DNA of 64,000 nt from Thermoplasmata archaeon (GTDB lineage: Archaea; Thermoplasmatota; Thermoplasmata; Lutacidiplasmatales; UBA184). Of the stretch, positions 11,340 through 39,707 are shown one piece after another (positions within the stretch are counted from its first letter, which is position 1; each line of letters opens with the position of its first letter). The stretch lies in assembly GCA_035504595.1 (NCBI GenBank), contig DATJRQ010000018.1, positions 5,204 to 69,203 on the forward strand, in the 5' to 3' direction. The notes below the pieces were generated by a model, which was given only the letters and a program-made list of their open reading frames with translations, did no database searches and was not told where the DNA came from. Position numbers and translations under genes: made by a program.

Positions 11340-11376
11340 CGTACCTTCCTCTCGGAGCCGCGGTCCCGCCGAGCCA

Positions 11377-12531: not shown

Positions 12532-12551
12532 CGGTGTTGCTCCTTGCTCCC

Positions 12552-19100: not shown

Positions 19101-20684
19101 TTCGTAGGCGACGAGCGCGGTGCGCGCGGCCTGGTCCCGCTCCGAGGAGCCTTCGGGCCGGTCGTAGGCGAGCATGAGGTACAGGTTCCCGCGCTCGATC
19201 GCGACATCGGTGCGGGTCGGATCGAGCCGGAACAGCTCGTCGAGCACCGGAGCGAGCTGCGCCGGGTCGTTGGTGCGCGCGACGACCTCCTTCTTCTCGA
19301 GGAGGTACGGAAGCTCGCCGGGATGCGCGGAGAGCAGCGCGTCGTACGCCATCAGCGCGCCGGCCGTGTCGCCGCTCGCGGAGAAGATCCGGGCAAGCTC
19401 GACCTGAGCCGCGACGTCCGACGGTTCCTCGGCGAGGATCGCCTGGGCGAACGCTTTTGCCGCGTCCGCCTGGTTCGCGCTGCGCGCGACTTCGAGCGCC
19501 TTTCGCAGGTCCCCGACGGCGTGAGGGTTCGCCGCCAGCAGGGCCTGGTATCCCTCGATCGCCCGGTCGACGTGACCGTCGGCGAGCTCGAGCTCGGCGA
19601 TCCCGCGGAGCGCCTCGAGGTGGTCCGGCTGCGCCACGAGCAGGGCCCGACAGGCACCGAGCGCAACGTCGACCCGGTCGAGTCGCACCCCCAGGTCCCG
19701 GAGTTCGACCAGATTCTGCAGGTTGCGCGGGTCGACCTCCTGAAGCCGCTTCCTCGCCGCGATGGCGAGGTCCGGTGCATCCGCCTCGACCGCGCGCGCG
19801 ATCTCGTCGAGCGCGGCGACGTCGGACGGTGTGGCCGACTCGACGATCCCTTGCGCCATGGGGACCGCATCCGAGGTCCGGTCGAGCTTGAACAGCGCGC
19901 GCACGTGGAGCACCGCGGCGCGCGGGTCGTTCGGAGCGACCTGGTGGACACGGTCGAGCGCCTCGAGCGCTTCGGACAGCCGACCGAGCGCCGCGAGGAG
20001 GTCCGCGCGGGCGAGGAGGAGCTCCGGGTCGTCGGGCGACGTCTTCAGAAGCTCCTCGCAGGCCGCCAACGCGGGAAGCTCCCCGCCGTGCGCCCGGGCG
20101 AGTTCCAGTTTCATTCGAAGCGCGCGCGCGTTGTCCGGCGCGAGCTTCAGGGCCTTGTCGACGTACTGCATCGAGGTGGCGTCGAGCTGCTGCGCGTGGA
20201 GGTACGCCTCGAGCGCTTCGGCGTTCTGGCCGAGGAGCTTCAGCGCGTCGCCGCGGGTCGCCCAGAGCCCCTTGTCGTGCGGATTCCCCTCGATCGCCCG
20301 GTCCGTGAGCGCGACGACCTCGGGGAGGTCCTCGTTCTGCGCGAGGAGGATGAGCGCCTTGTGATGAAGGAGCGACGAGCCGCCGGGCGCGAACTCGAGG
20401 CCCAGGTCGATCGCGCGCCGGGCGAAGGCGGGCTGCGAGGCCCGGTAGAACGCCATCGCCGTCTCGTCCAGCCACGGGGCGATCTCGGTCCCGGCGTCCG
20501 CGAGCTCCTTCGAGTGGGATTCGACGGTCGCGAGGAACGCCTTCAGCGCACGGGTGTACTGGTCGCGGTCGGTGCGTCCCTCCGCCTCGAGCGCCCCGCG
20601 ATAGCTACGGCGCACGTCCTCCAGCACGCCGGACGGGGCCGCGGGCGCCGGAGCGGGGGAGTCTGCCATCTTCCGTCGTGCCAC
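16128..20684 (-). CDS. Giant (1517-aa) TPR-repeat protein with a C-terminal Cys-rich zinc-ribbon/RING-like module and a basic Pro-rich tail
   Basis: More than 25 recognisable 34-aa TPR units (A..G....A...Y.RAL.L.P.N pattern) across ~1300 aa; C-terminal CVGCGG...CQHC...CPKCN cluster; GTG start. The 1507-aa plus-strand ORF opposite it is a shadow. Confidence 0.8.
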   Translation of the reverse strand: MARRKMADSPAPAPAAPSGVLEDVRRSYRGALEAEGRTDRDQYTRALKAFLATVESHSKELADAGTEIAPWLDETAMAFYRASQPAFARRAIDLGLEFAPGGSSLLHHKALILLAQNEDLPEVVALTDRAIEGNPHDKGLWATRGDALKLLGQNAEALEAYLHAQQLDATSMQYVDKALKLAPDNARALRMKLELARAHGGELPALAACEELLKTSPDDPELLLARADLLAALGRLSEALEALDRVHQVAPNDPRAAVLHVRALFKLDRTSDAVPMAQGIVESATPSDVAALDEIARAVEADAPDLAIAARKRLQEVDPRNLQNLVELRDLGVRLDRVDVALGACRALLVAQPDHLEALRGIAELELADGHVDRAIEGYQALLAANPHAVGDLRKALEVARSANQADAAKAFAQAILAEEPSDVAAQVELARIFSASGDTAGALMAYDALLSAHPGELPYLLEKKEVVARTNDPAQLAPVLDELFRLDPTRTDVAIERGNLYLMLAYDRPEGSSERDQAARTALVAYERASTDADAAPVSELGIARASRLVGDHDRAIWAYHAFLDREGNQMRNDVLKELGHALREAGRYSEATDAYTRAIAGGLEDPDLFWGAVEVLAHSNQEARALQLLDMLLAREPNNPMFLRKKGQILLASGRRPEALKVLQSAVQGVTGDAHAFFEVAEALRAQGAYADAIAYYRRGLEVDPKSRHGRLALAETLLLAGKYAEVVTLADQLLKEDPNEIAAWKARGDAWRALGRPSELLYSLTAILLLEPDNGPALLEKYHLHRDAGENKEALESLTKLLATHGPSAQDATLHLERGDLAASLGLAEEANRSYERAAEIDPVYRVEIAIRRARLRLSSGRPDLALEVLDEGLKAAPAGAPANVAALLLRAEVLTALERPAEARAVYDEVRQREPRSPLAIAGTARSLLDEGRHADALELLRQSIPQVPPQESLYLLLAEAESGLGHLDPASDALKKGVEVLPKSTALWVRWGELGVARQAWPDAANAFAHALSLAPAATDVLLRAGFVAERLNHPNEALSFYERATEADPGNKQAWTSRGVALLATGRPTDAQTSFERALALDSDFGPAKDGKKLAAQKTRDAEISRYGREALLLEAKLNRTVAKNDLFVTLHVPYEYLEPVLAAIGRPPDLKLDRIEVAEIHDLENASYHLVTQALERRPPGIERRGFTMADVAVMSPPGYSLDQVQRLFGYLKAVLEADLRPENLKLTPDVEELARKALVLPPEQRTLFQLVRSLRVGIYKARLIKVVEEAGSAVHAPLPTLDLGAYGPEFRAKEADAGAPALPVSGDTYFAPENQPSPSPGASPAGPPAFSPSVTTAASQSAASPRCVGCGGIASVLHSCGAPLCQHCIGTFPKCPKCNQPVTTDNTRAAAGVTLHSASGRAASAPSSGLRGVFQRSKGPSSRTGGGSPLRKDHPGGVSGSPKPKPSPSGPATGSSTPMKDNSGSATAKSAPAPSADGSPSGTTVPEPPAPPPAPVVKPRRDKGDDEPRL

Positions 20685-22501: not shown

Positions 22502-23284
22502 CTACCCGAGGACGATCCCCTGCGTGGTGATCGCGAACGGCCGCCGTTCCGGGTCGTGGGCCGCGCCGCGCATCCGGACGATCTTGATCTGGCGGACGGA
22601 GCGGTCGCCGATCCATTTGCGCGTGAGGAGGATCTCGCCCCGGGTCAGCACCTCTTCCGGCGTGAGCAGCGCCGGATTGCCGGGGGTCGCCGTGATCAGC
22701 GCCGTGACGTTCTGCTCGGAGAGGAACCGCAGCAGCGACTGGATCTCCGTCCGCTCGGCCTGCGGGTCCTGGGAGGATTTCACCGCGAACCGACGGACCG
22801 ACGTGATCGAGTCGATCACGAGCCGTCGGAACGGCACGTTGGCCATCTGCTGGCGGAGCTTCAGATAGATCGACTGGATCGAGATATCCTCGACCTCCGC
22901 CGCCTTCTTCTCGGGCGAGGCGAGGTCTCGCATCGACTTCAGGTCCGACATCGTGCGGATCTCCTGGACCGCGGCCTGCCGCTTGAACGCCCGCGTCCCC
23001 GGGTTCGCGTCCAGCGTCTTCACCGCGGAGAGGTCCCATCCGAACGCGTGGACGTTCTCGATGATCTCGTTGGGGGGCTCATCGACCGCGACGAGCAGCA
23101 CTTCCTCGCCGCGCCGGATCCCCTCGAGAAGGAACGTGAGCGAAAGGAGCGTCTTGCCGCTGCCGGTCGCGCCGGTGACCAGGTAGGGCCGCCCCGCGAT
23201 CAAACCGCCGCCCAGCATCCGGTCGAGTCCGGGGACCCCGGTGGGCACGCGGTTCTGGAGAGTCGGCGGCACCGGAATCGTCAT
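22502..23284 (-). CDS. KaiC-like RecA-superfamily ATPase (single domain)
   Basis: GVPGLDRMLGGGL..G...LVTGATGSGKT Walker A and a KaiC-type body; 4-nt overlap with the upstream KaiC-like gene. Confidence 0.8.
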   Translation of the reverse strand: MTIPVPPTLQNRVPTGVPGLDRMLGGGLIAGRPYLVTGATGSGKTLLSLTFLLEGIRRGEEVLLVAVDEPPNEIIENVHAFGWDLSAVKTLDANPGTRAFKRQAAVQEIRTMSDLKSMRDLASPEKKAAEVEDISIQSIYLKLRQQMANVPFRRLVIDSITSVRRFAVKSSQDPQAERTEIQSLLRFLSEQNVTALITATPGNPALLTPEEVLTRGEILLTRKWIGDRSVRQIKIVRMRGAAHDPERRPFAITTQGIVLG

Positions 23285-25968
23285 TCGGCGGGTTTCTCGG
23301 GCGCGTCCTCAGAGGGCGGAGGCGGGGCCTCCCCTTGACCTTGCACGTCCGGTGGCGACGTTCCCTCCGTGGCCGAGATCACCGAGGGCGCCTTCTTCTT
23401 GCGGACCGCCCGCTTGCGCGGTTTCGGGGGGGCCGGGGGGACCGTCCCTTCCGAAACGGGAGTTTCGACCCCGCCGGCGGGTGCACTGACACCGGTCGGT
23501 TCCGACGCAGGCGACTCGGTCGCGGCCCTCGGTTCGACCTTGCGAGGAACCTTCGGCGCGCGCTTGGCCCTGCGTTTGGCCGGCGCGGCCGGTGGCGCGG
23601 TGGTCGGAAGCGCGGGCGGCGTGATCGTCTCCCGGGCAGCGGGGGCCGGCTCGCTGGCTGGCGACGGGGCGGGGGGAGTTGGGGGGACCGATTCGGTCGG
23701 GGGGGGCACCGGTACGGCCGGCCGTTCGCGGGGGGAAGCTGCCGGCGGCGGCGTGGGGACAACACCGGGGGTTCGAGTGGGGAGGGGAGGGGGCGCCGAG
23801 GGATCACGAGCGGGCGCTGAACCTTTCGCGGCGAGGTCACGGATCCCCGCAGGGGCCGCGGTCGCCGGAGGGACCCCACCCGCGCTAGCCTTGCCGGGCG
23901 AGCCCGAGCTCCGGGTGAGTCCGCTCGGAAGCGCGGGGGGCTCGGGGGGCGCCGTCCGGCGGGGCGAAGGGGCGGCCCGCGAGGGCGGCACAGCGCGTGG
24001 TGTCGCGACGGCGCCGGTCGGAGGGGCCGCCGGACGCGGGGGTAGGGGGCGTGAGACCGGTTCCGCGGTGAGCCCACTCGCGGACGCCGGTGCCGGCGCC
24101 GCTACAGCCGGTTCCGGGGCCACCGAGGTCGGAACGGACGCCGAAGGCTCGGCCACCGGAACCAGCGGGACGGGAGAGGGGGCCGCCGACGGCGGTGGAG
24201 TCGAAGAGGATTCGACGGGTTCCACGGGCGGCCGGGGCGCGATGGGGGCCGTGACCACGCGGGGAACGTCCGCCGGCTCCGCTACCGGAGGGGCCGGCTC
24301 GGGCATCGGTGCTGACGCGACCGGAACTTCCACCGGCGCGGGGGCCGCGGCGGGCGGGAGGGCTTCCTCGGGCGTCGGAACCGCGGCGGGCCCCGCCGGC
24401 ATCGGCTCGGGCTCGGGGGGCGGGGGGGGTGTCGCCACCGCAGGAGCCGGTGGTACCGGCGCGGGGGCCTCGGGGGCGACCACGGCGGGCGGAGAGGGTG
24501 GCGGAGCCGGTGCCGGAGCCGGTGGCGGAGCCGGCGGCGGCGCACTCTCGGGCGCCCCCGCGGGCTCGGGCGCCGGGATCTCACTCCCGGTCGACGTGGG
24601 AGGGGCCGGCTCGGGCGGTGGCGGAACGGGCGCCGGGACCGGCGTCACCGCACGCGGGACTCCACGACGGCCGCCGCCGGTCGGTGCGGAAGGGGTTCCG
24701 GAAACGACCGGAGCGATAGGGGCAACGGTCGGAGGGGGGGGCGCCGATGCGGGAGTTTCCGGAGCTTCGGGAGCTACGGGAGACAGCGGCTCCGTGACGG
24801 GCGCCACGATTCCTGCGCCGGTCGGTAGCACCGTCAGCAGCATCTCGAGCTGCCGCTGCAGCTCGGCGCTCGGAGGCAACTGAGTGGGGGCGAACCCGGC
24901 GCGCGCTTCGCTCGCCCGAGCGACGACACGCATGAGCGCGGCGGAAGCCTCGGGAGTACGTTTCGAGGCATCGGGCGGAGGAATGTTCCGGTACGCGCCG
25001 GCCACGTCCATCGCCAGAGCGCTCGCGCGAGCGACATGTCCGGGAACCTCGGCGACCTCCCCCTGCCGGACCCCGGCGAGGGCCGCTTCGATCTCGGCCC
25101 GGATCGGGCCCACGTCCGCCTCGATGAGGACGAGGTCGCGCACCTGTTCGAGGAGCGGGTCCATCGTGCCGCCCGCGTACTTCGACGTCGGCAGGGCCGC
25201 CGCGCCGGCCGCCGGTTGCGCTTCGATGATCTGCCGGGTATCCCGGGAGATCGTGACCGAGAGATTGATGTCGATGCCCTGCGGTCCGATGCGGTACGGA
25301 TGAAGCCGGATGTCGTGCGAGCTCCCGCGGAACTTCTCGACGCCGATCGCCCGGACCGTCGCGTTCTCGAGCTCCCATCGGAAGAGCCGGATCTCCCCTC
25401 GGGCGAGCATCCGTTCGGTCGTGTCCGCGTCCTCAATCGGGGACTCGACCGTGAGGAACGTCGTGACCTGGAGGTCCGAGAGGAATCGCAGGAACGTCTG
25501 CGCACCCGCGACCTCGTTGAACCCCTTCATGCAGAAGTACTGGAGCGCCGTCAGAGAGTCGATCACCACCCGCGTGAAACCACGGCGGGTGACCTCGGCC
25601 CGGAGCATCTGCTCGAGCGCCGTGATCGTGACCTCGACGCCGGTCAGCTCGGGCGTGCGCCGGATGACGAACGGCACCTGGCCGAACGGCATCGAAGCGC
25701 GGACCGCGGAGATGTCCTTGAACGGGACGCGCTCGTACCGCATCACGTCGGGGATCGCGTCGAACACCTCGACCCGGTCGAACTCCGGACCGAGCCCGCG
25801 GTGATTCAGCCGAGCCTCGTTCGGGGGCTCCTCGAGCGTGACGAGCAACCCGCGCTCCCCTCGGCGGACCCCTTCGCAGAGGAACTGGAGGGCGAGGGTC
25901 GACTTGCCCGACCCGGACGGTCCGACGATCAAGTACGGGCGCCGAGCGATCACGCCGCCGTCCAGCAT
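23281..25968 (-). CDS. KaiC-like ATPase (~260 aa) fused to a ~600-aa Pro/Ala/Glu-rich disordered tail with a basic C-terminus
   Basis: N-terminus MLDGGV..RPYLIVGPSGSGKST (Walker A) + KaiC body, then ~600 aa of P/A/E/V-rich low complexity ending in KRRAKRAPKVPRK...PKPRKRAVRKKKAP. The in-frame upstream sequence encodes ...ISTGNAGLDA immediately before the ATG, with no alternative start before the stop. Confidence 0.75.
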   Translation of the reverse strand: MLDGGVIARRPYLIVGPSGSGKSTLALQFLCEGVRRGERGLLVTLEEPPNEARLNHRGLGPEFDRVEVFDAIPDVMRYERVPFKDISAVRASMPFGQVPFVIRRTPELTGVEVTITALEQMLRAEVTRRGFTRVVIDSLTALQYFCMKGFNEVAGAQTFLRFLSDLQVTTFLTVESPIEDADTTERMLARGEIRLFRWELENATVRAIGVEKFRGSSHDIRLHPYRIGPQGIDINLSVTISRDTRQIIEAQPAAGAAALPTSKYAGGTMDPLLEQVRDLVLIEADVGPIRAEIEAALAGVRQGEVAEVPGHVARASALAMDVAGAYRNIPPPDASKRTPEASAALMRVVARASEARAGFAPTQLPPSAELQRQLEMLLTVLPTGAGIVAPVTEPLSPVAPEAPETPASAPPPPTVAPIAPVVSGTPSAPTGGGRRGVPRAVTPVPAPVPPPPEPAPPTSTGSEIPAPEPAGAPESAPPPAPPPAPAPAPPPSPPAVVAPEAPAPVPPAPAVATPPPPPEPEPMPAGPAAVPTPEEALPPAAAPAPVEVPVASAPMPEPAPPVAEPADVPRVVTAPIAPRPPVEPVESSSTPPPSAAPSPVPLVPVAEPSASVPTSVAPEPAVAAPAPASASGLTAEPVSRPLPPRPAAPPTGAVATPRAVPPSRAAPSPRRTAPPEPPALPSGLTRSSGSPGKASAGGVPPATAAPAGIRDLAAKGSAPARDPSAPPPLPTRTPGVVPTPPPAASPRERPAVPVPPPTESVPPTPPAPSPASEPAPAARETITPPALPTTAPPAAPAKRRAKRAPKVPRKVEPRAATESPASEPTGVSAPAGGVETPVSEGTVPPAPPKPRKRAVRKKKAPSVISATEGTSPPDVQGQGEAPPPPSEDAPEKPAE
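23330..25100 (-). repeat. Low-complexity Pro/Ala-rich coding region (GC-rich GGn/GCn codon repeats), not a true tandem DNA repeat
   Basis: ~1.7 kb of compositionally biased sequence encoding PAPAPAPPP..., PEPAPP..., etc.; the units are imperfect. Confidence 0.5.
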
Positions 25969-26214
25969 CGCGTCGAGCCCGGCATTGCCGGTCGAGATGC
26001 GGGGCTCGGGCTCCGACGCTGACGGAACTCGTGCGGACGCGGTGTCCTCCCCGCGGCGCGCCGCCCGCGAGCAGGGTCGCCGCAGTCGTACGAGGCCCGA
26101 CCCGCGCTAAGTAGTTTCGGGACGCCCGGCGGTGACGACGGCGTCGCGCGCACCGGTGCGGCGCCGGTTCGACGCAGGAGCCTAATAGGGGCGGCCGTCC
26201 TCCGCGCGCCGGGT

Positions 26215-26334
26215 GCTGAGGTAGCCTAGCTCGGCCAAGGCGCCAGATTCGAGATCTGGTGGTGCGTATGCATCGCGGGAGTTCAAAGGGCCGCCGGGGG
26301 CGTGCTCCGGGGCCGGAAACTCTCCCCCTCAGCG
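26215..26334 (+). tRNA. tRNA-Ser (anticodon CGA) with a ~33-nt intron in the T-loop (exons ~26215-26287 and 26321-26334)
   Basis: Hand-folded: acceptor GCTGAGG/CCTCAGC; D-stem GCC/GGC; anticodon stem CCAGA/TCTGG with loop TTCGAGA (CGA); long variable arm; T-stem GGGAG/CTCCC with TTCAAA-[intron GGGCCGCCGGGGGCGTGCTCCGGGGCCGGAAAC]-T. The architecture and intron position are identical to the tRNA at 2805. Upstream CTAATAGG lies ~27 nt before the 5' end (TATA-like). Confidence 0.7.
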
Positions 26335-26363
26335 CCTCCACCTCGGGGACGGTTCGCGTCTGG

Positions 26364-26564
26364 GTGGAACTGACCCGGGCTGGTTCGGTGGAGCGGCGCC
26401 GGCTGACGGTCCCGAAGGGCACCCGCGTGCGGGCGGTGCTCCGGTCGCTGGGACAGTCCCCCGAAGGGAGCGCGGTGCTGGTCGGCGAGGTTTCGATACC
26501 GCTCGACACCCCGATCGAGCAGCCGACCCGGCTCACCGTCCTTCCGACGTTCTCGGGCGGTTGA
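26364..26564 (+). CDS. ThiS/MoaD/SAMP-like beta-grasp protein (66 aa) ending in Gly-Gly
   Basis: VELTRAGSVERRRLTVPKGTRVRAVLRSLGQSPEGSAVLVGEVSIPLDTPIEQPTRLTVLPTFSGG matches the ThiS pattern, including 'LxDGDxVxIxPxxSGG'. The ORF-track start (26259) lies inside the tRNA, so the start was reset to GTG 26364. The stop overlaps the next gene's ATG (ATGA). Confidence 0.6.
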   Translation: MELTRAGSVERRRLTVPKGTRVRAVLRSLGQSPEGSAVLVGEVSIPLDTPIEQPTRLTVLPTFSGG

Positions 26565-27901
26565 GCCGGACGCGGCGCTCCGCTCTCGGCCCGGCCGCCG
26601 GGCAAGGGGTTAAGGTCCGGGCGCTCGTCTCTAGTGGTACTCTCAGAGGCGCCGTGCCCACCAGTTGTCCGATCTGCGAGCAACCGATCCCGTCCACGGT
26701 CGGTCATTGCTCCGTCTGCGGGTTCCCGACCGCTCTGGCGATCGAGGGATTGCGCTCGCTCGGGCCGAACGGCGCGACGGACGCGGAGCTCGCGTCCCCG
26801 ACCGTGCTCGAGGTCCGACCCGCCCCCAAGACGCCAGAGCCGCCCTCCGCCGAGTCGGAACTGTGCGCGTCGATCAGCCGCGACATTCGCGGCAAGCTCG
26901 AGTATGTCCGGGAGCTCGGACGCGGCGCCCCGGACCCGACGAGCGACATGTGCCAGGCCGCGCTCAACGAGGCCGAGGGGCGCGTCAGCGAAGCGCTGGA
27001 CGTGCTTCGGCGGGCGCAGCACAGCCTCGACCGGCAGACCGACGAGGTGCTCCGGGGCCGACTCGACTCGCTCCGCACCCGCGAGAGCGCGCTGCGGGAG
27101 ACCGGCGTCCAGTTCGCCCTTGGGGGCGACCTGCGGCGGCTCGCCGATGCGGTCGACGGCGGACAGCGCGAGTCGGCGGTCGGTCTCCTCGTCGAGACCG
27201 AGCGTCGCGTGGCCCAGTTCGAATCCGATTGGCGGGGACTGCAGGGACTGCTCCGTCAGATCGACACGCTTCGGAAGGAGGCCGCCGACCTCGGGATCCC
27301 GCTCGGCGAGATCGCCGGCGAGGTCTCCGATATCCGGGACCAGCTGCGCGGGAGCGATATCACGGAGGAGGCGCTCGATGAGGTCGCCCAGGCGGCCGCT
27401 CAGACGCTGATGCTGCTGCACGAAGCGATCCCGACCTCGCTCGAGGAGGAGCTCCTCCGGCACGAGGCGACCCTCGACCGGTACCCGGACGACCACGCGC
27501 CGAGCGCCGCCGCTCGACGGCTTCACGGCGAAGCCGCCCGCCATCTCAAGAAGGGGCGGCTCTCGGACGCGGTCCAGAGCGTCCGCGAGCTCCGGCGCGA
27601 GATCGAGCGGCTCGAACAGTCGCGCGAACTCCGCGAGGCGGCGGTCGGCGCCGCGCCGGTCGCACCCGCCGCGCCGCCGCCGGTGGAGACCGAAGCGGAG
27701 ACCCTCGAACGGCTTCTCAAGAAGGCCCGCAGCCTCGCCGGGCGGGTCCGCACCCTGCCCCCGGACAGCGAGCTCGCTCGCGAAGCGGCGTCGCAGATCC
27801 GGGAGGTCACGGACCTCCTGCGGAACCGCGAGCTGCGAGGCGCCGATCAGGCGCTCGCCCGCTTGATGCGGATGCTCTCGGCCGAACCGGGAGGCGTCTA
27901 G
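26561..27901 (+). CDS. N-terminal zinc-ribbon + long coiled-coil protein (446 aa)
   Basis: CPICEQ...CSVCGF ribbon, then ~380 aa Arg/Glu/Leu/Ala-rich heptad-like sequence. Translationally coupled to the SAMP-like gene. Confidence 0.55.
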   Translation: MSRTRRSALGPAAGQGVKVRALVSSGTLRGAVPTSCPICEQPIPSTVGHCSVCGFPTALAIEGLRSLGPNGATDAELASPTVLEVRPAPKTPEPPSAESELCASISRDIRGKLEYVRELGRGAPDPTSDMCQAALNEAEGRVSEALDVLRRAQHSLDRQTDEVLRGRLDSLRTRESALRETGVQFALGGDLRRLADAVDGGQRESAVGLLVETERRVAQFESDWRGLQGLLRQIDTLRKEAADLGIPLGEIAGEVSDIRDQLRGSDITEEALDEVAQAAAQTLMLLHEAIPTSLEEELLRHEATLDRYPDDHAPSAAARRLHGEAARHLKKGRLSDAVQSVRELRREIERLEQSRELREAAVGAAPVAPAAPPPVETEAETLERLLKKARSLAGRVRTLPPDSELAREAASQIREVTDLLRNRELRGADQALARLMRMLSAEPGGV

Positions 27902-27905
27902 GCCC

Positions 27906-29069
27906 ATGCCCAAGACGACGACGGTGCCGGAGCTCCGTGCGCGGCTCGACCGGCTCTCGGTCCAGGGCCACGCGCTCGAATTGGAGGGGCTCCCGTTCCC
28001 GAATGCGAGCCTGCACGAGTCGTTCGAGCAGGCGTTGGCGGCGGGCTCGCTCGATCGCGCCGCCGCGGTCGTGAAGGGCGGGGAGAATCTCCTTGCCAAG
28101 GTCTCCCAGGACTGGACGTGGATCCGCGAACTCCTCCGACGCGCCGACGAACTGCGCGCGATCGCGGCGACGTTGGGGGTCGACCTGCAGCACCTCGACG
28201 CGCGCGTCGGGAATCCGCGCATGCGACTCCAATCGGACCCGTTGAGCTCGGGGTCGATGGAGAAGGCCGCCGCGAGCGCTTCGCTCGCGCTCGCCGTGCT
28301 GAACGACACGATCCCGAAGTACTGCGTCCAGGAGGCGCAGAACCTCGGGGAGTCGATCCGGCGGGCCCGCAATCGCGGGGAGGACGTCCGCGAATCCGCC
28401 CGCACGTTCACGCTCCTGCTCCAGGCGATCCAGGACCAGAACCTCGCCGTTTCCGCCCAGCGGCTGGTCGAGACCCGTCGCGCCGTGTCGCGGATCCCCC
28501 GGGCACCGGCGCTCCCGACGTCGAACCCGCGCGAGGAGGAGGAGATCCTGCAGGAGGCGCGGAACCTCGCCCGCCGGCTCCAGCGCATCAAGGGGAAGGC
28601 GCGCGACGCCCAGACCGCGGCTCGTCTGATGTCCCAGATCCGCGGTGCCCTGAGCGAGGAGCGGCGGTTCGGCACGCCGGAGGAGGAGATCGAGGCGCTT
28701 TGGCTCGAGGTCGACCGGATCACCCGCGAGCGACGGCTGGCGTCGGAAGTTCCGGAGCCCCCTCGGGGGGAACCCGACCTCGCCACAGCCGGCGCGGAAG
28801 GGAACGGGACCTTCGACGCCCTCGGTCCGCCGCCGCCTGGTTCGATGCGGGAGGAGGCGCCCGCTACCGGGTCGGAGGAGGAGACCGACGACGCCGAGGA
28901 GAAGGGTGAGGAGGAGGGCGACGAGGATCGCCGACCCCCGGTCGCGTTCGCCCCGTACAATCCGTACATCCCTCCGGATATACCGCTGCCCACGGACGCC
29001 GAACAGGACCCCGACTCCCCGGCGGCGCGGGCGCGCGCCCGGGGCTCGCGGGTGCGACCGCAATCTTAA
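27906..29069 (+). CDS. Coiled-coil protein with an acidic C-terminal tail (387 aa)
   Basis: Predominantly helical Arg/Glu/Leu/Ala composition; C-terminal Glu/Asp-rich stretch (EEETDDAEEKGEEEGDED); starts 4 nt after the previous stop. Confidence 0.5.
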   Translation: MPKTTTVPELRARLDRLSVQGHALELEGLPFPNASLHESFEQALAAGSLDRAAAVVKGGENLLAKVSQDWTWIRELLRRADELRAIAATLGVDLQHLDARVGNPRMRLQSDPLSSGSMEKAAASASLALAVLNDTIPKYCVQEAQNLGESIRRARNRGEDVRESARTFTLLLQAIQDQNLAVSAQRLVETRRAVSRIPRAPALPTSNPREEEEILQEARNLARRLQRIKGKARDAQTAARLMSQIRGALSEERRFGTPEEEIEALWLEVDRITRERRLASEVPEPPRGEPDLATAGAEGNGTFDALGPPPPGSMREEAPATGSEEETDDAEEKGEEEGDEDRRPPVAFAPYNPYIPPDIPLPTDAEQDPDSPAARARARGSRVRPQS

Positions 29070-29079
29070 AATACCTATC

Positions 29080-29101
29080 GCAAGTGGTTTATACCACTTG
29101 C
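29080..29101 (+). promoter_or_regulatory. gar1-tfb promoter: a perfect 8-bp inverted repeat (GCAAGTGG/CCACTTGC) flanking a TTTATA TATA box
   Basis: GCAAGTGGTTTATACCACTTGC lies ~33-40 nt upstream of the inferred gar1 start; an additional TTAAAATA sits at ~29066. Confidence 0.45.
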
Positions 29102-29133: not shown

Positions 29134-29364
29134 GTGGGGACGGTCAAGGCCGTCACGCCCTCGGGATTTTTCACCGTCCGCTCGGTAGGCGCCGACGTGG
29201 CGCCGGAAGGGACGAACGTGACCGACGCCCGGGGCGTCGTGCACGGCCGCGTCGTGCGCGTCTTCGGTCCGGTCGCCCGCCCGTATCTCAGCGTTCGTCC
29301 GCGCCGGCCTCCCGCGCCGGCGGAAGGGGTGGCGCTGCTCGACGCGACGCTCGTGCGCGAGTGA
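29134..29364 (+). CDS. gar1: H/ACA ribonucleoprotein subunit Gar1
   Basis: GTVKAVTPSGFFTVRS...VTDARGVVHGRVVRVFGPVARPYLSV matches the Gar1 core; GTG start inferred. Sits immediately upstream of tfb, a conserved archaeal arrangement. Confidence 0.75.
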   Translation: MGTVKAVTPSGFFTVRSVGADVAPEGTNVTDARGVVHGRVVRVFGPVARPYLSVRPRRPPAPAEGVALLDATLVRE

Positions 29365-29379: not shown

Positions 29380-30348
29380 ATGGTCGATAAAGAGGTGGAA
29401 GTCCCCACGGAGAAGGCCGCGCCCCGCGCCGAGGACATGGCCGTCGCGACACGCTGCACGAGCTGCGGATCCACCCATCTTACCCGGGACTACGAGCGGG
29501 GCGAACTCGTGTGCGACGAGTGCGGACTCGTCCTCGAGGAGTCGATGATCGACCAGGGCCCGGACTGGCGCGCCTTCGACGCCGAGCAGGGCGAGAAGCG
29601 GGCGCGCACCGGTGCCCCGACGACCCTCACGATCCACGACAAGGGACTCTCCACCGAGATCGGGTGGAAGAACCGCGACCCGTACGGAAAGTCGATCCCC
29701 ACCCGCAACCGGGCGCAGCTCTACCGGCTTCGGAAGTGGCAGCGCCGAATCCGGGTCTCGAACGCGACGGAGCGCAATCTCGCGTTCGCGCTCGCCGAGC
29801 TCGACCGCATCGCGTCCGGCATGGCGCTCCCGCGAAACGTGCGGGAGACCGCGGCGATGATCTACCGAAAGGCCGTCAACCGCAACCTGATCCGGGGCCG
29901 ATCCATCGAGGGGGTCGTCGCGGCGTCGCTCTACGGCAGCTGTCGGCAGTGCAACGTCCCGCGTACGCTCGACGAGATCGCCTCCAAATCGCGGATCGGC
30001 CGCAAGGAGATCGGACGGACGTACCGGTTCATGACCCGCGAGCTCCACCTCAAGCTGATGCCGACGCGACCGCAGGATTACATCCAGCGGTTCTGCTCGG
30101 AGCTCAAACTGAAGGGCGAGATCCAGACCCGCGCGAACGAGATCCTGAAGGAGGCGACCGAGCGCGAGCTCACCAGCGGGCGGGGCCCGACGGGCGTCGC
30201 CGCGGCGGCGATCTACATCGCGAGCGTCCAGTGCGGCGAGCGCCGCACCCAGCGCGAGGTCGCCGAGGTCGCCGGTGTGACCGAGGTCACGATCCGGAAC
30301 CGCTACAAGGAGCTCACCGAGAAGCTCAACCTGCGGGTCATGCTGTAG
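29380..30348 (+). CDS. tfb: Transcription initiation factor IIB (TFB)
   Basis: N-terminal Zn ribbon CTSCGS...CDECG, B-finger and two cyclin-fold repeats. Confidence 0.95.
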
Positions 30349-33234: not shown

Positions 33235-33255
33235 GCCGCGTCGCTCGGACGAACG

Positions 33256-33900
33256 ATGCCCCGTCCGCTCCGCGTCGCGGTGCTCGCGTCCGGGGAGGGA
33301 ACGACCCTCGACGACCTCGCGACGGAGGTCGAGTCCGAGCCCGAGCGCGTCCGCATCGTCCTCGTCGTCTCCGACCGCGAGGGCGCCGGGGTGCTCGAGC
33401 GGGCGCGTCGCCACGCGATCCCGACGGACGTGATCCGGAGCCGCGGACCCGGCACCGAGGGCTGGTCGGCCCGCCTCTCCGAACGGCTGACGGACGCTCG
33501 GGTGGATGTGGTGCTGTTGGCGGGGTACCTGTCGATCCTGCCGCCGGACTGGGTCGACCGCTGGAAGGGGCGCGCCCTCAATCTCCATCCGTCGCTGCTG
33601 CCCAAGTACGGCGGGAAAGGCATGCACGGCCTCCACGTCCATGCGGCGGTGCTCGCCGGTGGGGAGACGGAGACCGGCGCGACGGTGCACCTGGTGACCG
33701 GGACCGTCGACGGGGGTCCGCCGCTCCGGCAGGAGCGGCTCGCCATCCGTCACGACGATACCGCGGAGTCCCTGCGCGCGCGGCTCCACCCGGTCGAGGT
33801 CCGTCTGGCGGCTCGCACGCTCCGCGACTTCGCGGACGACGCGCTCCCGCTGCCCTACCCGCGCGACGCGGCCCGCGCCGACGTTCCGCGGCGCGACTGA
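33256..33900 (+). CDS. purN: Phosphoribosylglycinamide formyltransferase (GAR transformylase)
   Basis: N-terminal VLASGEGT, NLHPSLLP and the formyltransferase core. Confidence 0.85.
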   Translation: MPRPLRVAVLASGEGTTLDDLATEVESEPERVRIVLVVSDREGAGVLERARRHAIPTDVIRSRGPGTEGWSARLSERLTDARVDVVLLAGYLSILPPDWVDRWKGRALNLHPSLLPKYGGKGMHGLHVHAAVLAGGETETGATVHLVTGTVDGGPPLRQERLAIRHDDTAESLRARLHPVEVRLAARTLRDFADDALPLPYPRDAARADVPRRD

Positions 33901-34322
33901 CCCCGGCCCGACCGCCCGGCCGGGGCGAGCAGCTCGGCGAGCGGGGTCGGTCGCGGCGGCAGCTCTCCCGCGAGCCGGTGGCGCGTGGTCTGGACCGGAA
34001 ACAGCTCCCCGGCGTGCGCCCGCCGGACGACCTCCGACTTTGACACCTCCGGCCCGGGGCTCCACCGGCCGATCGACACGACATCGCTGTCGTAGTCGAC
34101 GACCCACGCCGGGACGCGTCGCGCGCCGAGGCGTTTCAGCGCGGCGTACCGGTGATGCCCGTTGAGGATGACGCCCGAACCCCGCGCGACCCAGATCGGC
34201 TCCTGGGAGACGCCGGTCGATCGGATCTCCTTCACCAACCGCTCGACCTTCTTCGGGTCGACGTGCTCGTGCTCCCGCAGCGACTCGATCGGGACGAGGG
34301 CGAACTCCACCGGGTCGGTCAC
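33855..34322 (-). CDS. ParB/Sulfiredoxin-fold (ParB-like nuclease domain) protein
   Basis: ...ILNGHHRYAALKRLG motif (ParB/Srx GHHR). GTG start overlaps the stop of the FAD-subunit gene (GTGA); the upstream part of the long ORF is antisense noise. Confidence 0.55.
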   Translation of the reverse strand: MTDPVEFALVPIESLREHEHVDPKKVERLVKEIRSTGVSQEPIWVARGSGVILNGHHRYAALKRLGARRVPAWVVDYDSDVVSIGRWSPGPEVSKSEVVRRAHAGELFPVQTTRHRLAGELPPRPTPLAELLAPAGRSGRGQSRRGTSARAASRG

Positions 34323-35305
34323 GCGGCGGGCCCCCGGCGCGCCTCGTGGATCGCGCGGCGCACGTAGACGTCGACCATCCGCTTCCGATAGTCCGGCAGG
34401 AGGAATGTGTTGTGGACGGGCCGCACGCGCTTGGCGACCTCCTCCGCAAGGGTGCGGACGCGCTCGTCGGTGAGCGAAGACCCTTCGAGCGGGGCCGTGA
34501 GGTCGTCGAACCGCTTCGGGTACGACTCCGCGCCGCCGATCGCGAGCGCGAGGCGCTCGACCCGACCTCCGTCGTCCCATCGGCCGGCCACCGCCACTCC
34601 GAGCTCGGGGAAGTCGTACGACGGCCGGACCCGGAGCTTCTTGTAGCGGCCCCGGAGCCCCCGCGCCTCGGGCGGCAGGTGGACCGCGACGACGAGCTCG
34701 CCGGGGGCAAGACGGGTGCGTCGGATCCCGTCGCCCGCCGCATCGTACAGCTGGGCGAGGGGGAATCGCCGCCGTCCACCGGCGCCGGCCACCTCGACGT
34801 CGGCGCCGAGCGCCATCAGGGCGGGAGCGAGGTCGCCGGAGAACGTCGCGTAGCACTTCTCCTTCTGCGGGACGACGTGGCACCGATCCCCGTCGGCCTT
34901 GAGGCAAAAGCCGAGGCTCGCGCGCCAGAAGTAGCTCTGATTGAAGAAGAAGCACCGGGTCTCGACGAGCAGGTTCCCCCCGAGCGTTCCCGACGACCGG
35001 ACGAGCGGTGTCGCGACCTCGGCGAGCGCGTCCGCGAACCCCGGATACTCCGCGAGCAGTTCCGCGTCCCGCTCGAGGTCGGCGAGGCGCTCCATCGCTC
35101 CGATCCGCCCGAGGTCGTGGCCGGTGAGCTCGCGCACTCCGTCGAGCGCGATGAGATGCGGCCGGAGGTTCAGGTGCATCTTGTAGTTCGGCAGGAGGTC
35201 GGTCCCCCCGGCGAGGTAGTCGAACCGCCCCGCGAGGTCCCCGGCGAGACGCGTCGTCTCGTCGATCGAGCTCGGGCGGTGCAGCTCGAACGGGTCGAGG
35301 TGCAT
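34319..35305 (-). CDS. Molybdenum hydroxylase FAD-binding subunit (CoxM/XdhB-like)
   Basis: FAD-binding 'GGTDLL' motif region and CO-dehydrogenase flavoprotein C-terminal domain. Confidence 0.8.
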   Translation of the reverse strand: MHLDPFELHRPSSIDETTRLAGDLAGRFDYLAGGTDLLPNYKMHLNLRPHLIALDGVRELTGHDLGRIGAMERLADLERDAELLAEYPGFADALAEVATPLVRSSGTLGGNLLVETRCFFFNQSYFWRASLGFCLKADGDRCHVVPQKEKCYATFSGDLAPALMALGADVEVAGAGGRRRFPLAQLYDAAGDGIRRTRLAPGELVVAVHLPPEARGLRGRYKKLRVRPSYDFPELGVAVAGRWDDGGRVERLALAIGGAESYPKRFDDLTAPLEGSSLTDERVRTLAEEVAKRVRPVHNTFLLPDYRKRMVDVYVRRAIHEARRGPAA

Positions 35306-35309
35306 GGAA

Positions 35310-37634
35310 CTACGCGCCCTTCCAGGCGCGTCCCTCCTTCCGGCGAAGGTCGATCCCGCGCAGCACGCGGTCGGGCGTGATGGGAAGCTCGGTGAACCGC
35401 GCCCCGACGGCGTCGTAGAGAGCGTTACCGACCGCCGGCAGCGTCGCGATCAGCGGCCCCTCGCCGGCCTCCTTGGCGCCGAACGGCCCGTCCGGGTCGT
35501 CCTCGCCGACGAGCAGGATTTCCACCTCGGGCATCTGCTCCGGCGTGGGGATCTTGTATTCGAGCAGGGACGGGTTGAACAGCCGTCCGCCGCGGTAGTT
35601 CATCGACTCGCCCATCACCTGGCCCAGGCCCATGTGGATCGACCCTTCGATCTGACCCTCCACCGCGAGCCGATTCAGCGCGCGTCCGCAGTCGAACGCA
35701 GCCCAGATCTTCTCGACGTGGTACTCTCCGGTCTCGACGTCCACGTCGACCTGGGCGACGTACGCGGCGAACGAGTAAGCGGGGGCCGTCCCGGCGCGCG
35801 CCCCCTTGAACGTGCCCCCCTTCGGTTTCGAGTCGTACGCGCCGCTCGCCGTCAGCGCGCCGACCGATTCCATCGCCTTGTGGAGGGCGTGCAGGAAGGA
35901 GACGCCGACCTCCGGCTGGTCCCGGACCTGGAAACGCTCGTGGGCGGTCTCCAGGGTCTCCACGGGCCGCTCCAGCAGTTCCGCCGCTGCCATCAGGAGC
36001 TGCGCGCGCAGCCGCAGCGCCGCCGAGCGCGCCGCGTTCCCCATCATGAACGTCACCCGACTCGAGTAGGAGCCGAGGTCGATCGGGCTCACGTCGGAAT
36101 CGACCCGTTGCACGTGGACCCGTTCGAGGTCCACGCCGAGCACTTCCGCGACGATCGCGGCGAGCAGGGTGTTCGAACCCTGGCCGATGTCCGCCTGCAT
36201 CGAGTGGACGGCGATCCCCCCGTCCATGTCGACCTTCAGGTGAACGGTCGATTGCGGCATCTTCGGCGTGAAATGGATCGGGCTGTTCGACCCCGAAATG
36301 TAGAACCCGCAACCGAGCCCGACGCCCTTTCCAAAGGGGAGCCGGCGGAACTTCGCGTCCCAGCCGCTCTTCTCGCGCGCGGCTTGAAGGCACTTTAGGA
36401 ACGACGTCGAGGTGATCAGGAACTCGTTGACCGTGGTCGTGTTCGGCTCGATCGCGTTCTGCGCCCGGAGGTCGAACGGGTCGCGTCCCATGCGCTCGGC
36501 GAGGATGTCGAGCGCGGTCTCGACGGAGTAGCGGATGTTGGTGCCTCCGTGCGCTCGCATCGCGCCCGACGGTGGACGGTTGGTGTAGACGCGCCGGCCC
36601 TTGTACCGGAAATTCGGTACAAGGTACGGACCCATGGAGAGAACGCCGTTGTAGTACGTGGTGACGGTACCGAACGAGCTCCACGCCCCGCCGTCGATGA
36701 GTGCCTCGATGTCGTACGCCAAGATCCGACCGCTCGCGTCCACGGCGATCCGAACGTCGTTCTGCGTCGGATGTCGTCCGTGGTTCGTGTAGAAAACGTC
36801 CTCCCGGTCGAAGAGGATCTTGACGGGCCGACCGGTCTCGATCGCGAGCGCCGCGCAGACGATCTCGTGGGGGAGCGGGTCGGACTTGCCGCCGAACCCG
36901 CCGCCGACCTCCGGCTTGATGACCCGGATCCGGTGCATGGGGATCCCGAGCACTTCGGACAGGGAACGGTGCAGGTAGTGCGGTACCTGCGTCGCGCTCC
37001 AGACCGTCAGGCGCCCGTCGGGCGTCGCTTCCGCGATCGTCGCCATCGGCTCTGTGAACGCGTGGGTGACGCCGGCGTAGTTGCCGCGCACGCGGACCGT
37101 CTCCGCGGCCCGCGCGAAGGCCCCGTCAACGTCGCCGAAATGCTGGACGACCTCTTTCTGGATGTTCGTGCCGTTGAGACCGCGCGTGTGGATCGGCTCC
37201 TCGACCCGGTTGAGGCCCATCCGCGGGTCGGCGTACTCCGGAAGAATCTCCACGTCGCAGCGGACCAACGCAAGCGCGGCCTCCGCGGTGACCTCGTCCT
37301 GGGCGGCCACGGCGGCGATGATGTCGCCGTTGTACCGCGCCTTGTCCACCGCGATCGCCGTCTCGTCGTGCGTGATCGGAAGCACGCCGAATGCGGTCGG
37401 GTACTTCTCGCCCGTCAGCACAGCGAACACGCCGGGGAGTTCTCGGGCCCGGCTCGTGTCGATGGACTTCAACCGAGCGTGCGGCCAGGGGCTCCTCAGC
37501 AGCCGGGCCACCAGCATCCCGGGCCGCCGGATGTCATCGGTGTACTCCGCGCGGCCCGTCACCTTCAGGGGGCCCTCGACGTACGGGATGCGCCCGCCTA
37601 GGAGCCGGTATTCCGGCGGCGTGCTCGACGCCAT
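35310..37634 (-). CDS. Molybdenum hydroxylase large (molybdopterin-binding) subunit, CoxL/XdhA-like
   Basis: Aldehyde oxidase/xanthine dehydrogenase a/b hammerhead and MoCo-binding domains. Start set to the internal ATG that overlaps the small-subunit stop (TGATG). Confidence 0.8.
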   Translation of the reverse strand: MASSTPPEYRLLGGRIPYVEGPLKVTGRAEYTDDIRRPGMLVARLLRSPWPHARLKSIDTSRARELPGVFAVLTGEKYPTAFGVLPITHDETAIAVDKARYNGDIIAAVAAQDEVTAEAALALVRCDVEILPEYADPRMGLNRVEEPIHTRGLNGTNIQKEVVQHFGDVDGAFARAAETVRVRGNYAGVTHAFTEPMATIAEATPDGRLTVWSATQVPHYLHRSLSEVLGIPMHRIRVIKPEVGGGFGGKSDPLPHEIVCAALAIETGRPVKILFDREDVFYTNHGRHPTQNDVRIAVDASGRILAYDIEALIDGGAWSSFGTVTTYYNGVLSMGPYLVPNFRYKGRRVYTNRPPSGAMRAHGGTNIRYSVETALDILAERMGRDPFDLRAQNAIEPNTTTVNEFLITSTSFLKCLQAAREKSGWDAKFRRLPFGKGVGLGCGFYISGSNSPIHFTPKMPQSTVHLKVDMDGGIAVHSMQADIGQGSNTLLAAIVAEVLGVDLERVHVQRVDSDVSPIDLGSYSSRVTFMMGNAARSAALRLRAQLLMAAAELLERPVETLETAHERFQVRDQPEVGVSFLHALHKAMESVGALTASGAYDSKPKGGTFKGARAGTAPAYSFAAYVAQVDVDVETGEYHVEKIWAAFDCGRALNRLAVEGQIEGSIHMGLGQVMGESMNYRGGRLFNPSLLEYKIPTPEQMPEVEILLVGEDDPDGPFGAKEAGEGPLIATLPAVGNALYDAVGARFTELPITPDRVLRGIDLRRKEGRAWKGA

Positions 37635-38107
37635 CAGGCGCTCCCGCGGGCCGCCGCCTCGATCGCTTCGATGATCTTGGTGTAACCGGTACACCGGCAG
37701 AGGTTCCCCGAGATCGCCCGGACGATCTCGTCACGGCTCGGATGCGGATGGTCCCGCAGCAGCGCCGTCGCCGTGAGCACGAACCCCGGGGTGCAGAATC
37801 CGCACTGTGTCGCGCCGGTACGAACGAACTCCGCCTGCACCGGCGAGAGCCCGTGCGCCGGCGAGGCTCCTTCGATCGTGGTCACCTCGCGTCCCTCGAC
37901 CAGCCGGGCAAGCGAGAGGCAGCTCAGGGTCGGTCGACCGTCGAGGAGGACCGTACAGCACCCGCATGTGCCGAGGTCGCATCCGCGTTTCGTCCCGGTG
38001 AGCTCGAGGTCCTCGCGAAGCAGGTCGAGGAGGATGCGCGCGTCCTCGCACGGCGTGTCCACGGGGTGGCCGTTCAGCCGGAACCTAAGGGGGGCCGCGG
38101 ACGACAT
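37634..38107 (-). CDS. Molybdenum hydroxylase [2Fe-2S] small subunit (CoxS-like)
   Basis: Two Cys clusters, C..C..GxCGxC and CGFCTPG...C.C (plant-type and second 2Fe-2S). Confidence 0.85.
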   Translation of the reverse strand: MSSAAPLRFRLNGHPVDTPCEDARILLDLLREDLELTGTKRGCDLGTCGCCTVLLDGRPTLSCLSLARLVEGREVTTIEGASPAHGLSPVQAEFVRTGATQCGFCTPGFVLTATALLRDHPHPSRDEIVRAISGNLCRCTGYTKIIEAIEAAARGSA

Positions 38108-38930
38108 CCTCCTCCGTAACGGCCACCCGCCGGGGGGCCCCGCGACGACTCTCCCGCTTGGGATGCATCTCGTGCACCAATTCGGCCGCGATCGCGACGG
38201 CGATCTCGGGGGGGCTCTCGGCGCCGATCTCGATCCCGACGGGCGAGTTCACGCGACCGAGGGCCGCGCGCGAGACCCCGCGCCCGCGCAACGCGGCGAA
38301 CATATGTTCGCGCTTCGCGGCGCTGGCGATCAGTCCGATCCGATTCGGGAACTCGGCGATCGACCGATCGAGGACCTCGAGGTCCTTCTTCGCGTCGTAT
38401 CCCATCACGAACAGGTGGGTGAACGCGGACGGCTCGAACACCTTCCACAGGTCAGCGGGCGCGACCACTTCACGTCGGTCCGCCGTCGCGAACCGATCGA
38501 CGCCGACCCATTCGGCCCGGTCGTCGGCGACGCTGTAGTCGTACTCGAGGGTCGGCAGGATCGCGGCGAGTGCGTGACTGACGTGACCGCCCCCCCAGAG
38601 GAGGACGTTCGGCCGCGCGGGCACGTATTCCACCGCGATATCGACCGATCCCCCGCACAGGCTCGGGAGGCCCCCGTCCTTCCACGCCTGGAGGTCGAAG
38701 TGGTGGAGGTCGCCGGTCCGGGACCGGAACGCCCGGGCCGAGAGTTCCCGGACCCGCTCCTCGAGCGCCGCGCCGCCGATGGTACCGACGGACGAACCGT
38801 CGGAGCGGACGATCATCGACGCGCCGAGTTTCCCCGGCACCGACCCTGACGTCTTCACGACGGTCGCCCGGACGAACGCCTCGTGTGCCTCCAGGAGGCG
38901 CAACGCTTCCCGGAGCAGCTTGCGGTCCAT
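38085..38930 (-). CDS. XdhC/CoxI-family molybdenum cofactor insertion chaperone
   Basis: N-terminal XdhC_CoxI domain + C-terminal Rossmann-like domain. Confidence 0.75.
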   Translation of the reverse strand: MDRKLLREALRLLEAHEAFVRATVVKTSGSVPGKLGASMIVRSDGSSVGTIGGAALEERVRELSARAFRSRTGDLHHFDLQAWKDGGLPSLCGGSVDIAVEYVPARPNVLLWGGGHVSHALAAILPTLEYDYSVADDRAEWVGVDRFATADRREVVAPADLWKVFEPSAFTHLFVMGYDAKKDLEVLDRSIAEFPNRIGLIASAAKREHMFAALRGRGVSRAALGRVNSPVGIEIGAESPPEIAVAIAAELVHEMHPKRESRRGAPRRVAVTEEDVVRGPP

Positions 38931-39538: not shown

Positions 39539-39707
39539 CGCACCGCACAGGGATGCGTGCGCATCCGTTGCACCTGCCACGCCGGGCCGGTTAGTTAAGC
39601 CACCGCCCTACCGCGCCCCGACCGGGGTGTCGGAGGTGCCGACCCCAACTCCAAAACGCGTCGGACGCCCTCGCGCGGGTCGCCACCGAGGAGCGCGCTG
39701 GCTCGCA

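Follow-up and report, generated by a model that had tools for sequence, protein, structure and literature searches.

SAMP2 of Haloferax volcanii and Pyrococcus furiosus, TtuB of Thermus, and Urm1 are beta-grasp proteins that act both as sulfur carriers and as protein modifiers. In Haloferax, SAMP2 works with the E1 enzyme UbaA in both tRNA thiolation and protein conjugation; the E1 suffices in this system, and E2 or E3 enzymes are not predicted (PMC4048286). Here we describe a small ubiquitin-like protein (Ubl) of this kind encoded in a 64,000-nt stretch of DNA (hereafter the window; 69.6% GC) from a Thermoplasmata archaeon (GCA_035504595.1, contig DATJRQ010000018.1, positions 5,204–69,203). 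The most surprising feature of the locus is that the Ubl frame overlaps an unannotated, intron-bearing tRNA-Ser(CGA) gene.

A first-pass annotation of this DNA had proposed a Gly-Gly protein tightly coupled to two coiled-coil proteins with no E1 gene nearby, and it had missed the tRNA gene that abuts and overlaps the small open reading frame (ORF). All three plus-strand ORFs that it listed are present and conserved: the first closes with ...PTFSGG* at 26564, the second ends at 27901, and the third spans 27906–29069 (387 aa). Codon-position GC content (GC3 periodicity) favours coding in each of these frames. For comparison, we used 69 related loci, each from a different GTDB species and all from Thermoplasmata metagenome-assembled genomes (MAGs), including UBA184. 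Judged from these sequences, the locus is a lineage-specific conserved block of this Thermoplasmata clade.

A tRNA-Ser(CGA) gene with a predicted T-loop intron

The tRNA-Ser(CGA) gene occupies 26215–26334 on the plus strand, with exon 1 at 26215–26287, a 33-nt intron at 26288–26320, exon 2 at 26321–26334, and G as the discriminator. It has an acceptor stem (GCUGAGG/CCUCAGC), an anticodon loop (UUCGAGA), a long variable arm, and a T stem (GGGAG/CUCCC), and its minimum free energy fold is a cloverleaf. The intron lies at position 59/60, within the T loop. Neither ARAGORN nor Rfam at its gathering score found any RNA gene in the window. We regard these misses as false negatives caused by the T-loop intron: the unspliced gene scored 21.8 bits in a relaxed Rfam search against a cut-off of 29, intronless orthologues scored 57–60 bits, and ARAGORN reported tRNA-Ser(cga) once about 33 nt had been removed in silico.

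The intron is predicted to form a near-strict bulge-helix-bulge (BHB) motif of the hBHBh' type at 59/60, whose central helix consists of three pairs and an A·G mismatch. Positions 69–103 and 70–102 pair in all 59 loci and positions 68–104 in 53 of them, while 71–101 is A·G or A·A; the bulges read A72 A73 N74 and A105 N106 U107, and the base of the inner helix is paired in 59/59. An alternative central helix, AGUU/AACU, was rejected: it showed no covariation, and the 68–71/101–104 register fits instead. Non-canonical BHB introns at 59/60 have been described in tRNA-Cys and tRNA-Pro of ARMAN-2 (PMC3239211). With archaeal 59/60 BHB introns, the window intron shares the T-loop site, the T stem as outer helix, two 3-nt bulges, an inner hairpin, and a predicted splice product in which the UUCAAAU T loop of the intronless orthologues is restored. 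Unlike introns of the ARMAN-2 type, it is constant in length (33 nt in 61/61 loci), lies in frame inside an ORF, and carries a mismatch in its central helix.

A TATA-like element (TAATA, 26183–26187, plus strand) precedes the 5' end of the tRNA by about 30 nt. Related loci carry an A/T-rich box (CTAATAGG, CCAAATAGG, GCTCAAAT) at an equal distance before the tRNA, and this box would be expected to act as the tRNA promoter.

Several loci carry an intronless tRNA. Locus L052 holds two tRNA-Ser(CGA) copies, a decayed intron-bearing relic at 9080–9200 and, about 800 nt upstream of it, an intronless copy (8248–8334) that has taken over. A divergent subclade, represented by L047 (7440–7890) and L048 (596–1080), likewise has an intronless tRNA. 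In these two loci, 115–120 nt separate the tRNA end from the Ubl ATG, the spacer carries a TATA-like GGATAAGG, and the Ubl has an ATG of its own and an unrelated N-terminal extension of 13–21 aa.

The ubiquitin-like protein and its reading frame across the tRNA

Read from the GTG at 26364, the Ubl is a 66-aa protein (26364–26564, plus strand) with a SAMP2/TtuB/ThiS-like beta-grasp domain ending in FSGG, just as the first-pass annotation had it. The proposed ThiS/SAMP-type identity also held. The protein passed the Pfam ThiS cut-off of 22.5 bits both in the 66-aa form (25.6 bits) and in the long form introduced below (23.9 bits), and a profile built from 26 homologues matched, in the PDB, SAMP2 of P. 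furiosus (5lda_B), TtuB of Thermus (5ztb_E), and SAMP2 of H. volcanii (4hrs_A). These matches had E values from 2e-4 to 7e-3 (about 2e-4 for SAMP2 and TtuB), and the alignments reach the terminal GG. All 120 listed Ubl homologues end in SGG, and the codons for this tripeptide vary freely at synonymous sites. The annotation had named two findings that would speak against it, orthologues lacking the GG terminus and a small ORF that is not conserved; the GG is invariant in this set, and the ORF is kept among the relatives. By these comparisons, the small protein is a genuine, selected beta-grasp protein of the SAMP2/TtuB/ThiS type.

Its likeness to SAMP2, TtuB, and Urm1 thus lies in a beta-grasp domain of about 65 aa that aligns end to end, in the C-terminal GG, and in the best PDB profile matches. 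It differs from SAMP2 and TtuB in that the similarity is weak: the window protein scored 24.9–25.3 bits with Pfam SAMP2 (cut-off, 27) and 19.3 with the NCBIfam SAMP2 equivalog (cut-off, 70), while the divergent orthologue at L047 clears the Pfam cut-off (38.1). It further differs from all three in its gene context. The gene lies within a tRNA 3' trailer, apparently with a tRNA-encoded N-terminal extension, and no E1, NcsA/TtuA, or JAMM gene accompanies it within 64 kb. As the annotation had stated, ThiF/MoeB and JAMM proteins were found neither by Pfam among the roughly 40 ORFs of the window nor by a six-frame motif search of its 64 kb. The underlying premise that SAMPs normally adjoin their E1 is doubtful; in Haloferax, the genes for SAMPs are not known to be linked to ubaA.

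In another account, the Ubl is a housekeeping sulfur carrier and nothing else, serving tRNA 2-thiolation as SAMP2, TtuB, and Urm1 do, or cofactor synthesis; it would be unrelated to the two genes downstream, and its position behind a tRNA would be a historical accident. The closest solved relatives, SAMP2 and TtuB, are indeed sulfur carriers (PMC4048286), no conjugation machinery lies nearby, and synteny in this lineage is conservative in general. Against a purely housekeeping role, the protein falls far short of the SAMP2 equivalog cut-off, and SAMP2-type proteins of Haloferax perform both jobs (PMC4048286). We consider this account possible but rather doubtful.

Upstream of the GTG, the Ubl frame continues into the tRNA. 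The long form, 98 aa (26268–26564, plus strand), has as its first codon an ATG within the variable-arm loop of the tRNA, and most database homologues of the Ubl, at 96–100 aa, share the conserved extension MHRGSSK...LPLSAS. A reading of this extension as a protein motif was rejected: a synonymous-site test identified it as nucleotide-invariant tRNA sequence. The extension codons that span the tRNA are identical at the nucleotide level in 63/63 loci, and variable columns number 5 of 87 in the tRNA exons versus 31 of 33 in the intron.

The question of a 98-aa start was reopened by start-codon and frame statistics. In all 61 intron-bearing loci, the Ubl frame is open from a variable-arm ATG (50 loci) or TTG (11 loci) through SGG*, against stops in 27 loci for one of the other two frames and in 10 for the other. 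Counted from the tRNA end, the conserved mid-domain EG motif comes after 119, 122, 125, 128, or 131 nt, always in a single frame, so that spacer indels are without exception multiples of three, and the spacer has a higher GC3 (0.83) than GC1 (0.60). Downstream of the tRNA, 20 of the 61 loci have no ATG, GTG, or TTG that retains strands beta1 and beta2, and four have none before the EG motif. The ATG-bearing variable arm is restricted to the clade with the overlap, and the L052 relic has kept ATGATG and an open Ubl frame while its tRNA decayed. GGUGAU or GGUGGU stands 4 nt upstream of the variable-arm ATG, which we take to resemble a Shine-Dalgarno element, assuming typical archaeal 16S 3' ends.

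Transcription appears to start at the tRNA as well. Strand beta1 begins no more than a few codons past the tRNA 3' end, and in the distant lineages the Ubl ATG follows the tRNA after 16 nt (L073) or 76 nt (L072), with no TATA-like box in between. Because a promoter would not fit between the tRNA and beta1, the Ubl would have to be transcribed from the tRNA promoter, in L072 and L073 as well, and in the window lineage it would have no promoter of its own.

The overlap could instead be an artefact of ORF calling in a 70% GC genome. The Ubl would then be the 66-aa protein, started at the GTG or at a near-cognate codon just past the tRNA, and the frame across the tRNA would be open by chance. Stop codons are scarce at such GC content, the apparent N-terminal motifs are tRNA exons without synonymous variation, and the Ubl of the distant lineages starts right behind the tRNA. 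Chance would, however, have to account for a frame that is free of stops in every intron-bearing locus when the other frames are not, for indels confined to multiples of three, for the persistence of ATG and frame in the L052 relic, and for the 20 species with no fold-preserving canonical start; where downstream starts do occur, their position is not conserved. We regard an artefact as a serious contender, if a somewhat less than even one.

A start within the tRNA also has to face several observations that weigh against it and against the wider explanation built on it below. The window itself has the GTG at 26364, and one NCBI record (P0124) gives the 66-aa form. A canonical start near beta1 is available in 41/61 loci, and near-cognate codons (ATC, CTG) could serve elsewhere. 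The invariant 33-nt length of the intron could be structural only, and the loci are phylogenetically related, so that locus counts are not independent. A folded or processed pre-tRNA would mask or eliminate the start codon. The lack of an E1 in the 64-kb window counts on the same side.

RNAs with a double role are known from other settings. The tmRNA is both tRNA-like and an mRNA, and mitochondria have overlapping tRNA and protein genes in which mRNA ends are set by RNase P and RNase Z. The present locus resembles these in that one transcript would combine a tRNA structure with a translated frame. It differs in that translation of a cellular protein encoded downstream, in the same orientation, would begin at a codon inside a genuine elongator tRNA gene. 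Among the papers searched, there was no account of the cluster or of a start codon embedded in a tRNA, and no archaeal precedent.

Two paralogous rod proteins downstream of the Ubl

The second ORF had been annotated as a 446-aa protein whose start overlaps the Ubl stop (ATGA), implying translational coupling. The letters at this point are TTGA, within GGTTGA, and the TTG at 26561 is no more than the earliest codon at which that frame could begin. Of 301 gene 2 homologues, the best listed are almost all 405–418 aa long and cover 92–93% of the 446-aa query; a database entry with 100% identity has 415 aa, and the alignment opens at an invariant MP[TS]SCPICEQ. Because the homologues start there, we place the start of gene 2 at the GTG at 26654, which gives 415 aa (26654–27901, plus strand) and leaves 89 nt after the Ubl stop. 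The possibility, raised in the annotation, that gene 2 reads through the small ORF from further upstream was rejected: its frame has no ATG, GTG, or TTG before 26561.

Within the 89-nt gap lies a promoter-like region (26602–26649, plus strand) composed of GCAAGGGG-TTAAGG (26602–26615), CGTCTCTAG (26626–26634), and a Shine-Dalgarno-like AGAGG (26645–26649). The TATA-like TTAAGG (26610–26615) is present in 59/59 loci, mostly 42–45 nt before the gene 2 start, and is followed by CGTCTCT and then by the Shine-Dalgarno-like element. With no overlap and this element in between, translational coupling of the Ubl to gene 2 falls away, and genes 2 and 3 would constitute a unit with a promoter-like element of their own. 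A run of four T residues occurs in the gap in only one of the 59 loci, and this near absence of T-runs makes read-through from the Ubl into gene 2 possible.

Gene 2 encodes an N-terminal zinc ribbon with four cysteines (26654–26758), a Pro-rich linker that tethers it, and an all-helical repeat rod, predicted by AlphaFold2 (AF2) to comprise 14 helices (pLDDT 85.8). The ribbon has the form CPIC-x10-CSVC-GFP, and its C-x2-C-x10-C-x2-C pattern is invariant. Gene 3 (27906–29069, plus strand) begins 4 nt after the end of gene 2 and encodes 387 aa, as annotated. Its predicted structure (pLDDT 71.5) is a helical rod (27906–28745) followed by an acidic, disordered linker, and its C-terminal PYxPYIPPD and Arg-rich peptide (28950–29066) is conserved in the alignment. 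The description of the pair as a zinc-ribbon protein and a coiled-coil protein was correct for the ribbon, the helical content, and the acidic tail; the supposed coiled coils are paralogous repeat rods, since residues 133–383 of gene 2 align with residues 10–246 of gene 3 at 26% identity (BLASTP, E 3e-12). By sequence comparison, gene 3 is a lineage-specific duplicate, and it is absent from the distant loci L072 and L073. The two proteins probably form a heteromeric scaffold.

The rods have few relatives. Searches of both proteins against Pfam, NCBIfam, and PDB-sequence profiles gave no significant match, only noise; Foldseek against the PDB gave nothing significant (best E 0.07), and an exhaustive profile search recovered only 113 relatives among 1.84 billion representatives. 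In their short-helix/long-helix repeat units and elongated form, they resemble spectrin-like or EzrA/EbhA-type rods, and EzrA and EbhA were among the top Foldseek matches. These matches are not significant (E 0.76 and 1.4) and come without sequence kinship, so the likeness is an analogy of shape. A defence island was also considered and rejected, as the PADLOC matches were too weak: gene 2 had only a 15.6-bit match to LmuB, and the neighbouring KaiC proteins had weak generic P-loop ATPase matches only (best, mad8 at 29.1 bits).

These proteins could nevertheless be specific partners of the Ubl, as targets, readers, or E3-like adaptors in a dedicated non-canonical Ubl system. The Ubl precedes gene 2 in every locus examined, down to 32% gene 2 identity and with 100% co-occurrence, and the gap lacks a terminator-like T-run in 58/59 loci, which would permit co-transcription by read-through. 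The gene 2 ribbon shares its cysteine spacing with Npl4-type NZF ubiquitin-binding fingers and has a tail similar to their GH-C-x2-C-x-[LF]-P, a likeness that we treat as a lead only; the TF dipeptide of NZF is absent from the ribbon, and there was no Pfam zf-RanBP match. Ubiquitin-binding or ligase-like domains were not detected in Pfam, PDB-sequence profile, or Foldseek searches. Gene 2 moreover has its conserved promoter-like element and no start/stop overlap with the Ubl, gene 3 is dispensable in distant lineages, and the housekeeping genes around the cluster are just as syntenic. We therefore hold a dedicated partnership to be unlikely.

Gene neighbourhood and proposed explanation

The arrangement of Ubl, gene 2, and gene 3, for which the first-pass annotation had suggested looking in other archaea, recurs in the related loci. 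The common order among the 69 is HD, EVE, KaiC, KaiC, PGI (phosphoglucose isomerase-like), an interval of 0–6.5 kb, Ubl, gene 2, gene 3, TFB, and TldD, and the Ubl is followed by gene 2 in all 69 species loci covering it as well as in two distant lineages. The latter were reached by a scan with distant gene 2 relatives; an alignment of 11 was too divergent, and one of four sequences yielded two informative loci, L072 and L073. These have the order tRNA, Ubl, gene 2, gar1-like ORF, and tfb, with no gene 3, and their gene 2 proteins share 58% and 32% identity with distant family members. The syntenic block as a whole comprises PGI, tRNA, Ubl, gene 2, gar1-like ORF, tfb, and tldD. Because all of it is syntenic, adjacency alone is weak evidence of a partnership between the Ubl and gene 2.

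Two KaiC-like ATPases, matched by Pfam KaiC at E 2.8e-46 and 3.3e-30, are encoded divergently from the tRNA on the minus strand, at 22502–23284 (260 aa) and 23281–25968 (895 aa). The annotation had placed the operon beside them. The pair is present in the window and stands near the cluster, on the opposite strand, in all long loci; in relatives it is separated from the cluster by PGI, the tRNA, and inserts of up to about 6.5 kb. In every related locus, a bact-PGI_C gene separates the longer KaiC gene from the tRNA; the window is unusual in that the corresponding interval (25969–26214) has no PGI. In L007, L036, L058, L059, and L065, 3.5–6.5 kb of extra DNA, perhaps integrated elements, lies between PGI and the 5' side of the tRNA. 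The longer KaiC-like protein, which varies in length among relatives (528–895 aa as called), has as its tail about 650 aa of low-complexity sequence rich in Pro and Ala.

Downstream of gene 3, a gar1-like ORF (GTG, 29134–29364) lies just before TFB; it scores only 14.2 bits with Pfam Gar1 (E 0.038). Ahead of this ORF, an inverted repeat (GCAAGTGG/CCACTTGC) holds TTTATA (29088–29093) in its loop, and the TATA-to-start distance, about 46 nt, is like the one found at gene 2. TFB (29380–30348) is unusually strongly conserved, with 90–98% protein identity across species against only 50–80% for neighbouring genes. Upstream of the HD, EVE, and KaiC genes, the minus-strand regions 10365–13298 and 16128–20684 feature two double-zinc-ribbon (DZR) proteins next to a giant ORF of 1518 aa, whose orthologue in L001 is rich in TPR repeats. 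A molybdoenzyme cluster (33235–39607), 5–10 kb downstream, encodes xanthine-dehydrogenase-type MoCoBD and FAD subunits, XdhC, and a MobA-like transferase. To make the molybdenum cofactor, a cell needs a Ubl of the MoaD type and an E1 of the MoeB type, and the window encodes neither.

The explanation that we consider best, and hold to be somewhat more probable than even, combines a transcript driven by the tRNA promoter, a Ubl start inside the tRNA, a Ubl served by an unlinked E1, and a separate rod unit. From the layout, the tRNA promoter would drive tRNA-Ser(CGA) with its 33-nt BHB intron, and transcription would continue, meeting no terminator, into the SAMP2/TtuB-type Ubl gene, so that the pre-tRNA would carry the Ubl mRNA as its 3' trailer. 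For the main clade, comparative data point to the AUG or UUG inside the tRNA variable arm as the sole start codon kept in every species; its use would give a protein of 95–99 aa, the first 25 or so residues of which would be set by tRNA and intron sequence. With the start inside the tRNA, any one transcript would either mature into tRNA or be translated into the Ubl. The C-terminal GG of the Ubl would presumably be adenylated by an unlinked E1 of the UbaA/MoeB type, and the adenylated protein would then act in sulfur transfer, as for tRNA thiolation, in protein conjugation, or in both. Genes 2 and 3 would be tied to the Ubl by conserved adjacency and possible read-through, not by translational coupling. 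The tight coupling of the Ubl to coiled-coil proteins and the reading of the system as lacking an E1 were overstated.

A more speculative extension, which we offer as improbable, is that the pre-tRNA is itself also the mRNA of a tRNA-thiolation-type Ubl, with the start codon in its variable arm. RNase P and RNase Z cleavage and splicing would destroy the message, and translation would consume the precursor; Ubl synthesis would then report, or be throttled by, the flux through tRNA processing, and the rod pair would be a lineage-specific reader or target of this Ubl.

Should Ubl translation begin inside the tRNA, the Ubl would be, as far as our literature searches showed, the first archaeal cellular protein with its initiation codon within a functional tRNA, and the arrangement would provide a simple switch, built into the transcript, that sets RNA maturation against translation. 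Standard finders miss a tRNA whose intron lies at 59/60, and gene callers then yield a ThiS protein of 97–100 aa; more than 100 database entries have acquired in this way a conserved N-terminus that only looks like protein. The Ubl and rod cluster represents a small protein family outside Pfam in abundant soil and peat Thermoplasmata, and it offers a tractable place to seek archaeal Ubl readers or targets.

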